Assembly: GCA_951406725.2 (NCBI GenBank)
Contig: OX597814.1
Location: 212,350,001-212,414,000, forward strand
Source: Octopus vulgaris
Lineage: Eukaryota
Direction: 5' to 3'
Length of the DNA stretch: 64,000 nucleotides
Shown here: positions 17,803 through 41,779 of the stretch, in pieces
Layout of the letters: each line of letters opens with the position of its first letter
Position numbering within the stretch: the first letter of the stretch is position 1
Translations under genes and position numbers: made by a program
Notes under the pieces: model-generated
The model's input: only the letters and a program-made list of their open reading frames with translations
Told to the model about the DNA's origin: nothing
Database searches by the model: none

Positions 17803-17870
<68 letters not shown>

Positions 17871-18091
17871 TCAATATAGGTGGCAAAAAAAATTTTGTAG
17901 AATTCTTTTGCCACCAGCGGCCTAGTGGGAAAAAATTAAATAGTCATAGACCATTTTTAAGTTCAACATCAACAATCAAGGAACGGCCATAATAGGCCAT
18001 TCACCTACTAGAAATAACAGCCAAAGCTTCAACCGCAAATAAAAATTAATTCCGTAAACCAGGAGAAAATTTAAAAAACATTTACCTTGTA

Positions 18092-18198
18092 ATTTCTTAT
18101 ACGATATACCGTTTCATCTCCTGATTAATGGTAAACTAACCTGATTAAATTAAATCAAGCCAATCTTCCAAAGGCCCTCAGATTCTTCAGTAAGAAAT
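18092..18198 (-). ncRNA. Type I hammerhead ribozyme (H1 copy 1)
   Basis: ATTTCTTA-CTGAAGA-ATCT..AGAT-GAAA-CGGTATATCG-TA-TAAGAAAT; one distal stem II mismatch. Confidence 0.85.
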
Positions 18199-18583
18199 AG
18201 CCCAAGTCGGAACAGATATTTTCACGAGGCAAATCCGACCTTGCCAAGGTTATATCTGACCTAAAATCTTCAAATCGTCGCACTCGCGTCAAATTTATCG
18301 GCAGCAAATAAATATAAGCCGTCGATTCCATTACGGAATTAACCAGAAAATTCATAATTAATCAATATAGGGTGGCAAAAAAAATTTTGTAGAATTCTTT
18401 TGCCACCAGCGGCCTAGTGGGAAAAAATTAAATAGTCATAGACCATTTTTAAGTTCAACATCAACAATCAAGGAACGGCCATAATAGGCCATTCACCCAC
18501 TAGAAATAACAGCCAAAGCTTCAACCGCAAATAAAAATTAATTCCGTAAACCAGGAGAAAATTTAAAAAACATTTACCTTGTA

Positions 18584-18690
18584 ATTTCTTATACGATATA
18601 CCGTTTCATCTGCTGATTAATGGTAAACTAACCTGATTAAATTAAATCAAGCCAATCTTCCAAAGGCCCTCAGATTCTTCAGTAAGAAAT
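18584..18690 (-). ncRNA. Type I hammerhead ribozyme (H1 copy 2)
   Basis: 8-bp stem I, CUGAAGA, stem II ATCTG/CAGAT, GAAA, near-palindromic stem III, GUA cleavage triplet. Confidence 0.88.
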
Positions 18691-18820
18691 AGCCCAAGTC
18701 GGAACAGATATTTTCACGAAATTTACGGAATTAATTTTTATTTGCGGTTGAAGCTTTGGCTGTTATTTCTAGTGGGTGAATGGCCTATTATGGCCGTTCC
18801 TTGATTGTTGATGTTGAACT

Positions 18821-18927
18821 ATTTCTTACTGAAGAATCTGAGGGCCTTTGGAAGATTGGCTTGATTTAATTTAATCAGGTTAGTTTACCATTAATCAGCA
18901 GATGAAACGGTATATCGTATAAGAAAT
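18821..18927 (+). ncRNA. Type I hammerhead ribozyme (H1 copy 3)
   Basis: Same intact core; predicted cut after 18919. Confidence 0.88.
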
Positions 18928-19059
18928 TACAAGGTAAATGTTTTTTAAATTTTCTCCTGGTTTACGGAATTAATTTTTATTTGCGGTTGAAGCTTTGGCT
19001 GTTATTTCTAGTGGGTGAATGGCCTATTATGGCCGTTCCTTGATTGTTGATGTTGAACT

Positions 19060-19166
19060 ATTTCTTACTGAAGAATCTGAGGGCCTTTGGAAGATTGGCT
19101 TGATTTAATTTAATCAGGTTAGTTTACCATTAATCAGCAGATGAAACGGTATATCGTATAAGAAAT
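19060..19166 (+). ncRNA. Type I hammerhead ribozyme (H1 copy 4)
   Basis: Same intact core; predicted cut after 19158. Confidence 0.88.
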
Positions 19167-19286
19167 TACAAGGTAAATGTTTTTTAAATTTTCTCCTGGT
19201 TTACGGAATTAATTTTTATTTGCGGTTGAAGCTTTGGCTGTTATTTCTAGTGGGTGAATGGCCTATTATGGCCGTTCCTTGATTGT

Positions 19287-19339
<53 letters not shown>

Positions 19340-19348
19340 TAGATAGAT

Positions 19349-19407
<59 letters not shown>

Positions 19408-19709
19408 TACACATATATATATATATGTTTGGGTTTGTACTGGTGTACTGGTTTCATCCATTGCTGTGCGAGGAAACTGCTGAACTACTGCTCTACATTT
19501 AATGCTTCTAGACAATAATACCGTCCATATTGCACAATTACGCCTAATGCATAATTTATCGAAATCTATTTGGCGAGCCACTAGTATACGATAAAAAGAA
19601 GTGCTATAACATGAACAATTCAGGATTCTAACATAATTCCCATAAACACAGAGCTGTGTGTACCTACAGACATTTACATACATATATATATATACACTGC
19701 GCTTCAAAT

Positions 19710-19892
19710 GATTAACGACAAGAATCTATGCACGGTGATCGTTCACCACGAGGGGCTGCATGCACTCCTACATTTCCTTGACCTTCGACCCAACCTCCAA
19801 CCCCCAACATGACACATCCACACTCATTCGTCTGGCCGAAATTGTGCTCTTGAAACTTAACTGTTTCTCACTTGCGGGTGAGTTTTACCAGA
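19710..19892 (+). mobile_element. PLE reverse transcriptase fragment (Neptune-like)
   Basis: [23 protein letters not shown] then (frameshift) DTSTLIRLAEIVLLKLNCFSLAGEFYQ, matching PLE RT SLYTxIPHxEG..TLxRLAExVL..NxFxF. Confidence 0.7.
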
Positions 19893-21569
19893 ATGAATTC
19901 TTGATGTGTACATGTTTTCAAAGCGTTGAAATGTATTGTAGAACAAGAAGAAAAATAAATTTCATTCGACGCGTAGATACTGAGCAGTATATATATAAAG
20001 GATAAAATCCTTCTTTGTTTCCTAAAAGTAGAAAAAATGTCTGCTTTTTCAGCTTTTAGAAAAAAACTCTCGAGCGCTAATGAAACTTATTCAACAAAAA
20101 ACAAACAACAAAAGTTGGGCAGATCCAATATTCTTTACTGGTTGAAAAATATCAAAATCATTAAGACACTACGTTAAGAAACGAAAATTGTAACCAAACA
20201 CGTGTGCTAGAAGCCGTAGTTATTCGAAAAACAATTGGCTGCAAATCTAGAGATAAATTAGGCTTCAAATAGCAGAAATTTTGTCTACAGACAAAAGACC
20301 TTGAGAACCCCGAAGCCGATTCGATAACTGTCGTCAAATGTTAAGAATTGCATTGAATATTTCAGCAATCTTCTAAAACATAGATTCTCGCCGACAAAAT
20401 AATGGATATTTACAAATGAAACAGCGCCACGCAAAAAATATTTTTACTAATGCCATTATCGGAAAACATGAGAAAATTACTATACAGCTCACAATTAAAT
20501 AAACCTTAAATCAAAGGAGCCAGATACTCTCCTAAACATATAAGCAATGAGGATAGAATGAAAACGTGCGCTCTATATCACACTTTCTTTCCAGCCCCAG
20601 TTATTTCCATCTAATAGCAAGAAAGGCATACTTTGTAAATGTATCATTGATGTCGTCATGTATGATATCAGTAAGGTGATCGAATAAGCATAATAGGATT
20701 ATAAAAGAGCAATCATTAAATAGTTGCGTGAAATCGAGACAAGAGAAAGCAGGGGTCTCAGAATAATATCTTACATTTCGTCCCATCAGACTTTCTAAAT
20801 ACCCAAGATAATGGGAGCCGAATCCCTAGAATCAGCAATATTAATATCAGAACCGATTCGCAACGCTAGGAGTCATACTTGTAAAAATGGAAAGCTGCTC
20901 TAGTTTGTGTCTGTAGATATCATACGAAAGTCACTCCTCATAATTCGGTCCTGTACAGAGGAGATATGTCAGAAAATCCATAGAGATAACTCTAGAACAT
21001 TCCCATTAGCAGCAGCTCACACGAAGACCTATTTTGGCGTTGGCGTTCACAATTTGTACAGCAAAGGAAACGTTTATATCTTTAGAAGCACCTATCACTT
21101 TCATCTGGAATGAAAAATCTAGCTGCAGGCAGCTTCAGAAAGGAATATAAAGATTGAATGAGACTATTATAACGAGGTACTAGTAAGTTGTGGTTACACT
21201 AGGAAGTACGCGTATACGGAATATTCTTCCACCGTCCTTTCAAAGCACGCGGGTGAGAAAATATCATTGAAGCTCTACCACATGGAAGCTATGCACCAAC
21301 TCAAAATACATCCTGTAGCCTAATTTTAAGATATCACGCTCAGGTGTACGGGCGTAGCAAGCAATGACATCAAGTATAGATTCTGGTATCATGTATCTTT
21401 CAGGTGCAAGGACGCAGAATACTTCACCAACCTGAACTCGCTATCTAAATGAAAACACATGAAGTATCATTGAAAGATGCAATCGATTGATTAAATTTGA
21501 TCTATAGTATTGATTAACCCAGGAGCACACAATTACCCAAAAGCCAAAGTAAACATTATACGTTAAACC

Positions 21570-40596: not shown

Positions 40597-40894
40597 ATAT
40601 ATATATATTTAAAAATTCATATACGTATACATATGTATATACGTATATATATATATATATATATAATTAATCAATATAGGGTGGCAAAAGAAAAATTTGT
40701 AGAATTCTTTTGCCACCAGCGGCCTAGTAGGAAAAAATTAAAATAGTCATAGACCATTTTTAAGTTCAACATCAACAATAAAGGAACGGCCATAATAGGC
40801 CATTCACCCACTAGAAATAACAGCCAAAGCTTCAACCGCAAATAAAAGTTAATTCAGTAAACCAGGAGAAAATTTAAAAAACATTTACCCTGTA

Positions 40895-41001
40895 ATTTCT
40901 TATACGATATACCGTTTCATCTGCTGATTAATGGTAAACTAACCTGATTAAATTAAATCAAGCCAATCTTCCACAGGCCCTCAGATTCTTCAGTAAGAAA
41001 T
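40895..41001 (-). ncRNA. Type I hammerhead ribozyme (H1 copy 5)
   Basis: Intact core and stems as in locus 1. Confidence 0.88.
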
Positions 41002-41544
41002 AGCCCAAGACGGAACAGATATTTTCACGAGGCATTTCCGACGTTGCCAAGTTTATATCTGACCTAAAATTTTCAAATCGTCGCACTCGCGCCAAATTTA
41101 TCGGCAGCAAATAAATATAAGCCGTCGATTCCATTACGGAATTAACCAGAAAATTCATAATTAATCAATATAGGGTGGCAAAAAAAATTTTGTAGAATTC
41201 TTTTGCCACCAGCGGCCTAGTAGGAAAAAATTAAAATAGTCATAGACCATTTTTAAGTTCAACATCAACAATAAAGGAACGGCCATAATAGGCCATTCAC
41301 CCACTGACTATTTTAATTTTTTCCTACTAGGCCGCTGGTGGCAAAAGAATTCTACAAAATTTTTTTGCCACCCTATATTGATTAATTATGAATTTTCTGG
41401 TTAATTCCGTAATGGAATCGACGGCTTATATTTATTTGCTGCCGATAAATTTGGCGCGAGTGCGACGATTTGAAAATTTTAGGTCAGATATAAACTTGGC
41501 AACGTCGGAAATGCCTCGTGAAAATATCTGTTCCGTCTTGGGCT

Positions 41545-41651
41545 ATTTCTTACTGAAGAATCTGAGGGCCTGTGGAAGATTGGCTTGATTTAATTTAATC
41601 AGGTTAGTTTACCATTAATCAGCAGATGAAACGGTATATCGTATAAGAAAT
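41545..41651 (+). ncRNA. Type I hammerhead ribozyme (H1 copy 6)
   Basis: Intact core and stems; predicted cut after 41643. Confidence 0.88.
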
Positions 41652-41779
41652 TACAGGGTAAATGTTTTTAAATTTTCTCCTGGTTTACTGAATTAACTTT
41701 TATTTGCGGTTGAAGCTTTGGCTGTTATTTCTAGTGGGTGAATGGCCTATTATTGTTGATATATATATATATATATATA

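Follow-up and report, generated by a model that had tools for sequence, protein, structure and literature searches.

Tandem copies of a 239-nt sub-unit in one arm of a young non-LTR retrozyme insertion in Octopus vulgaris

Layout of the insertion

The window analysed here is a 64,000-nt stretch of the Octopus vulgaris genome (assembly GCA_951406725.2, contig OX597814.1, positions 212,350,001 to 212,414,000), and all window positions are counted from its first letter. At 17863–19290, between two (TA)n tracts, the window contains a young copy of a common retrozyme. It is a single tail-out inverted insertion of a 492-nt non-LTR retrozyme, the right arm of which is an array of 239-nt copies (Table 1). 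Positions within the retrozyme are given with the prefix U and refer to the reference 492-nt unit, which is the reverse complement of window positions 17867–18358.

Table 1. Features of the array-bearing insertion, its flanks and the second insertion in the window (".", no strand)
Feature	Position	Strand	Basis
(TA)n target microsatellite, left side	17805..17865	.	sequence
Left arm, with 1.74 units of 492 nt; inner terminus U132, outer (3') terminus at site B (U492+4)	17863..18719	-	
Distal full 492-nt unit (reference U)	17867..18358	-	
Distal left type I hammerhead with a single mismatch in stem II	18092..18198	-	
Proximal left type I hammerhead in its native flank; cleavage predicted between 18592 and 18591	18584..18690	-	
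Inversion centre: 2 extra bases (AA) separating the two inner ends	18720..18721	.	
Right arm: 2.38 exact 239-nt copies; outer (3') end at site A (U391)	18722..19290	+	
Joint 1 (U399 to U161, CT overlap)	18819..18821	+	sequence
Type I hammerhead core, ~60-nt stem II insertion; predicted cut after 18919	18821..18927	+	
Joint 2, same as joint 1	19058..19060	+	sequence
Type I hammerhead core; predicted cut after 19158	19060..19166	+	
(AT)n target microsatellite, right side	19289..19426	.	
Second independent tail-out insertion, same family, other subfamily; B end left, A end right	40660..41760	.	

Differences from the subfamily are confined to the distal left unit (17867–18358), which has four substitutions and a 1-nt deletion that are absent from L096, a locus of the same subfamily. 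One of these five differences falls in hammerhead stem II, at window position 18120. The remaining 930 nt of the insertion match the subfamily, and the right arm shows 0 differences from it at the scored sites. The allele that marks the subfamily at window position 18579 is almost absent in the contigs of two public DNA-like runs. Over 18690–18960, contigs from four public runs have only canonical continuations among the loose ends listed at the joint. Over 18430–18719, the joint is not listed in the contigs of three runs, and one raw RNA run has 0 reads there. Because the two DNA-like runs are almost wholly without the 18579 allele, they do not carry this subfamily, which may be very young or population-specific, and their contigs count neither for nor against the joint. 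The 239-nt unit is absent from the second insertion (40660–41760). Directly ahead of its site-A end, that insertion has a short deletion.

A hammerhead ribozyme with an enlarged stem II

Examined by hand, the motif in the unit is a type I hammerhead with an 8-bp stem I and the core stretches CUGAAGA, GAAA and GUA. Stem II comprises 5 bp and carries about 60 extra bases, whereas stem III is short and closed by a palindromic loop, TATA, replaced by TGCA in older copies. The family core is CUGANGA, GAAA and GUA/GUC, with N7 being any of the four bases across subfamilies. Covariation was assessed in 16 family copies, hand-chosen so that the subfamilies are represented: pairing is kept in 99% of cells, and in 6 of the 33 pairs both sides vary. 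Shuffled controls average 1.4 such pairs, with 0 of 500 reaching 6, and slid controls give 0. At the gathering threshold, Rfam returns 0 hammerhead matches for this sequence, likely because of the long stem II insertion; at E ≤ 10, it reports eight weak snoRNA/miRNA matches. The hammerhead is real despite this silence of Rfam.

A family of 492-nt retrozymes with two preferred ends

The 492-nt family is a non-LTR retrozyme. Searches of the assembly (2.8 Gb, 227 contigs) yielded 1046 first-look candidates, 815 exact hammerhead 23-mers and 420 exact site-A ends. The arrays contain from 1 to ~11 units and are found on many contigs, the insertions lying in (TA)n with their 3' ends pointing outward. 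GC content is 0.339 over 18001–20000, flanks included, where <45% is the criterion for retrozymes. The longest ORF in the sense frames is 66 aa, and no ORF with RT and GIY-YIG domains is present in the 492-nt unit or in the insertion.

Head-to-head inversions number 56 across 70 loci. The outer ends have two preferred positions, site A (U391) and site B (U492+4, that is, U496), 105 nt apart. Ends were counted in 58 loci drawn from the top matches, the first 100 hammerhead matches and the gapped matches, which is not a random sample, after dropping four rows (L003 and L004, which each show part of one locus; L113, which shows L111 again; and the degenerate L087). In this set, 38 loci combine A with B, 9 have B with an unclassed end, 9 have A with an unclassed end and in 2 both ends are unclassed, a class that includes arrays cut by the fetched window; there are 0 A/A and 0 B/B loci. 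The pairing is family-wide (e.g. L067–L106) and points to an RT that works as a dimer, with one site for each DNA end. Within the first 100 site-A ends listed, a single complex locus has more than one such end within 10 kb. The count of site-B ends, 603 forward and 1361 reverse, is not comparable to that of site A, since its variable gap inflates one strand. A-type arms elsewhere end at U393–397, indicating that the register near site A is flexible. The complex locus L111/L113 (G000:C4:46.28 Mb) has two oppositely oriented copies of a site-A end with 27 nt of its flank and of a jump from U445 to U360. Ribozyme-cut monomers were considered as the usual template of the family and rejected, because only 1 of 139 inner ends lies at U260.

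The 239-nt array and its joint

The first-pass annotation of the window described the right arm as about 2.4 exact copies of a deletion-derived 239-nt sub-unit, joined over a CT microhomology immediately 5' of hammerhead stem I. The sequence bears this out. The array at 18722–19290 amounts to 2.38 exact copies, with 0 mismatches at 330 compared positions, and has the composition U301–399 + U161–399 + U161–391 on the plus strand. Both occurrences of the joint read ...GATGTTGAACT/ATTTCTTACTGAAGA, the slash standing at 18820/18821 and 19059/19060. The overlap is the 2-nt CT (U398–399 = U159–160), which can be assigned to either side. In each round, 253 nt of the 492-nt unit are skipped, and the joint is placed directly 5' of stem I. 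The hammerheads of the array recur every 239 nt, as the annotation had it, and the cuts it gave after 18919 and 19158 coincide with the cuts predicted after GTA. Back-splicing as the origin of the joint is ruled out, since GT/AG is absent at the joint on both strands.

The ribozyme had likewise been called intact. This is correct for the core and for the 8-bp stem I, but the 5' strand of distal stem I and loop 1 are altered, as the joint swaps CUUG-GGCU for GUUG-AACU. In a 136-nt window, both the 239-nt and the 492-nt contexts are predicted to fold well, with stem I pairing of ~0.96. When whole circles are folded, predicted stem I pairing is ~0.0 in the 239-nt circle versus ~0.65 in the 492-nt circle, and the predicted cost of the hammerhead fold is 5.6 versus 1.7 kcal/mol. 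On these predictions, the complete 239-nt circle disfavours the hammerhead.

Distribution of the joint in the genome

The 19-mer spanning the joint has two matches in 2.8 Gb, both at this locus. The first-pass annotation had proposed looking for the joint at other loci, and had set against its own view the case of a unique joint better explained by one local DNA duplication; the first half of that case is what the assembly shows. Gapped patterns, in which the same anchor recurs within ~465 nt, gave 4, 12, 16, 8 and 3 matches for five unit positions. No other locus with a repeated joint is found among the mapped gapped-pattern matches, and hammerheads less than 400 nt apart occur in this search only at the present locus; its exact anchors would miss arrays with mutated anchors and units without any of the five anchors. 

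Same-sense jumps were mapped in the same 70 loci, in a set biased by the anchors used: there are 27, of which 26 are distinct, and only the jump of this locus occurs twice. In 17 of the 27, the joint overlaps by 1–3 nt, as here, while 8 have inserted bases and 2 are blunt. Single skips of this kind number 25 besides the present one. L064, L110 and a match at G000:C7:115.546 Mb represent independent skips with a common breakpoint at U36, a possible jump hot spot. One candidate for a propagated short subfamily, L065, was discarded, being a single unit with ~11 small deletions. We consider the array very probably a one-off that has not spread in this assembly.

The annotation went further and read the sub-unit as a defective or minimal replicon that would delimit the cis elements needed for replication. 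This is not supported, since the joint is found only here, site B is absent and the hammerhead fold is disfavoured in the predicted 239-nt circle. Site B, which is one end of all 38 loci with both ends classed (38 of the 58 counted), lies inside the deleted 253 nt, and here it is the 492-nt arm that supplies the B end. With a unique joint and site B in the deletion, the 239-nt unit has not spread in this assembly and does not have all the cis sites that insertions use. No propagation apart from the parent was seen, the joint being present at this locus only in one haploid assembly. The 239-nt array does not define a minimal retrozyme. The absence of the joint elsewhere, together with the missing usual end, makes a copying accident during insertion likely, rather than a miniature replicon. 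The annotation is borne out in part: the array most likely arose because one delimited stretch of template was copied more than once. A separate small circle is less likely.

Templates of the two arms

At 18 diagnostic sites, the arms of one locus agree fully in 38 of 42 loci, compared to 192 of 1676 cross-locus pairs (4.9 of 42 expected), a count that leaves out L003, L113 and L087. The 239-nt arm carries the haplotype of its own left arm, which is found in 1 of 35 loci from the C1/C2 set. This shared rare haplotype and the general agreement of arms suggest that both arms likely derive from a single template. Alternatively, one master may have been dominant at a given time, or the inverted arms may have been homogenised later. 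Units of two subfamilies are found within one insertion at L153 (G000:C7:219587–222931), reflecting either two RNAs or later conversion; the mixture suggests that two-template insertions occur. Family arrays also contain variants common to some, but not all, units. In the right arm of L102 (G000:C12:88.82 Mb), variants follow a three-unit period (145C+287T, 147C, none), due to a trimer template or a block duplication, whereas the left arm has no period. Such partial sharing fits later duplication at the DNA level or mixed multimeric templates.

Origin of the array

We favour, with a probability of roughly 0.45, the reading that the RT, working on ordinary element RNA, came to a halt at a predicted helix on two occasions, each time priming anew next to site A. 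Both strands of (TA)n would be cut by a Penelope-like RT/endonuclease provided in trans. Synthesis would then start from the two DNA ends on a single RNA, from one at site B (U496) and from the other at site A (U391), accounting for the two outward arms seen in the insertion. The strand begun at site A would halt at U159–161, at the foot of a stable helix or at a broken RNA end, and its terminal AG would re-pair with CU at U398–399, in the small hairpin carrying site A. The putative restart point lies 8 nt past the usual start site, and the helix just upstream of the ribozyme. An identical stop and restart would follow, after which the strand would have been completed at U301, where the arm ends and joins the left arm via 2 extra bases. 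The outcome is likely a dead-end by-product.

Both breakpoints coincide with helix edges in the predicted 492-nt circle. U148–159 is predicted to pair with U115–125 (mostly p 0.84–0.99), with U159 being the first base of this helix met by the RT after stem I, and U396–398 closes a predicted hairpin that holds site A in its loop and U398–399 at its foot. Of the 261 nt that separate site A from stem I, the deletion takes up 253; for two random points, P is ~0.0013, a post hoc value. The position of the breakpoints at helix edges and this span favour a stop at U159–161 and re-priming via AG:CU. A stop hot spot at U159–161 is not clear, as U156–166 holds 6 of 139 inner ends plus jump donors, two of them from this locus, and no enrichment of landings near site A is established among the 27 jumps of the anchor-biased set from 70 loci. 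Given that no other jump is repeated, reiteration by the RT must be rare if it occurs. Long-range pairing that would bring U159 and U399 together was also considered and is absent from the predicted 492-nt circle. 

A bolder proposal, which we hold to be rather doubtful, is that Penelope-like RTs, the sister group of telomerase, re-copy a helix-bounded segment by re-priming beside the start in a telomerase-like manner. The locus would then be a fossil of this activity, and the strict A/B ends would reflect an enzyme dimer that uses a single RNA to prime both DNA ends, at two fixed sites 105 nt apart.

The same arm could have arisen from one RT skip, from U161 to U399, giving U301–399 + U161–391, if slippage or unequal exchange, during repair or later, subsequently doubled the 239 nt. 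The direct repeat of 91–99 nt, 239 nt apart, would yield exactly the observed structure. Single skips with a 1–3 nt overlap are common in the family, as the 25 others attest, and the uniqueness of the joint and the block-wise sharing of variants in the long arrays L102, L104 and L106 are also consistent with doubling of DNA. However, 0 of those 25 skips have been doubled, many of them in older arrays with far longer flanking repeats, and an arm without subfamily differences at scored sites implies that little time has elapsed. Doubling also leaves unaccounted for the breakpoints hugging stem I and site A, and we regard it as somewhat unlikely. Two exact rounds would be expected, too, had the right arm been copied by rolling circle from a covalent 239-nt RNA circle and the left arm from 492-nt RNA, the circle originating through two-hammerhead excision from a donor locus with one such joint or from a ligated RNA fragment; this is the model of the first-pass annotation. 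A circle of this kind would keep the hammerhead core and site A (9 of 239 registers containing U391 hold the whole core), and its ribozyme is predicted to fold in the short local window. Monomer circles have been demonstrated for other animal retrozymes (PMC7229834), and a young donor could be missing from a haploid assembly. Against this, neither a donor nor a daughter copy is present in the assembly, two templates of the same rare haplotype would be required, and the predicted cost of the hammerhead fold is raised in the whole small circle. Without site B, even a real circle would make no normal insertion alone; we consider this origin unlikely.

An artefact of assembly at the long inverted repeat, producing a false joint or a false second copy, would find its precedent in L065 (G000:C8:20.717 Mb) and L181 (G000:C18:15.183 Mb), both of which contain runs of many small deletions that vary among units, reminiscent of RT slippage or of read errors in inverted repeats. 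The arm studied here has no subfamily differences, its joint is exact twice, and the locus shows normal family A and B ends in (TA)n, making an artefact improbable.

Relation to known systems

Animal non-LTR retrozymes are composed of tandem hammerhead units, and copying of their circles by a Penelope-like RT has been proposed (Cervera and de la Pena 2020, PMC7229834; Li et al. 2026, bioRxiv 10.64898/2026.07.22.740005). The octopus family likewise consists of short, AT-rich units in tandem, each with a single type I hammerhead, and is dispersed over many loci; its short helix III with a palindromic loop is like that of animal hammerheads (PMC4209133). Unlike in known animal retrozymes, the 492-nt unit has a ~60-nt insertion in stem II, which likely keeps Rfam from recognising it. 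The available text of these sources, in which size variants are family-wide (20-nt indel), does not describe an insertion where a shortened unit is repeated next to full-length ones. In the literature as represented by titles and abstract openings, mostly non-subscription and with supplements such as Supplementary Figure S9 of PMC7229834 aside, there is no repeated sub-unit joint in a retrozyme insertion, and in the same titles and abstract openings strict pairing of two start sites is undescribed. Ribozymes and retrozymes are unmentioned in the available portion of PMC13282606.

Insertions of Penelope-like elements have an inverted truncated arm and a microsatellite target, often with a tail at one end (Craig et al. 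2021, PMC8557442). In the work of Frangieh et al. 2024 (PMC11167929), AT-rich DNA is cleaved on both strands, and both are extended, by a purified Penelope-like protein with two internal start sites, for which a dimer is predicted. The retrozyme insertions resemble those of endonuclease-bearing Penelope-like elements in their partial tandems with an inverted 5'-truncated copy, their (TA)n targets and the tail at one end. In contrast to Penelope-like elements, the 492-nt unit has no ORF with RT and GIY-YIG domains, its tail is ~105 nt rather than 30–40, and the pairing of ends appears strict (38 A+B, 0 A/A and 0 B/B in 58 loci). A candidate helper is a young intact 781-aa ORF with RT and C-terminal GIY-YIG domains, present in many copies (L165–L174, e.g. 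L172:2206–4548). This Penelope-like family also has inverted truncated arms in (TA)n. In the loci compared, its DNA has nothing in common with the 492-nt unit, and the hammerhead pattern has no match in three of its loci. When the unit was compared with 40 GIY-YIG loci (30 of 148 matches and 10 widened stretches), the only matches were one neighbouring family fragment and three weak ones of 14–27 nt.

In repeat addition by telomerase, a bounded stretch of RNA is re-copied via short pairing to the start register. The RT of DRT2 copies a bounded RNA stretch several times (PMC12039810). Reiteration in DRT2 and telomerase is programmed and essential, whereas here it would be an accident seen once, with the step deduced from one locus. 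Viruses and viroids also give rise to RNA replicons that are defective or subgenomic and carry internal deletions. Like these, the 239-nt unit has an internal deletion that keeps the ribozyme; unlike them, it gives no sign of independent propagation and has lost one terminal cis site.

The value of the array is as a clue to RNA copying by Penelope-like enzymes, a cycle termed undefined in the available text of the cited literature. The better lead is the family itself, with hundreds of young insertions, one arm per fixed start site and mostly a single haplotype shared by the two arms. It offers a short, apparently non-coding template for in vitro study of twin priming by a dimeric RT, of circle versus multimer templates and of reiteration.
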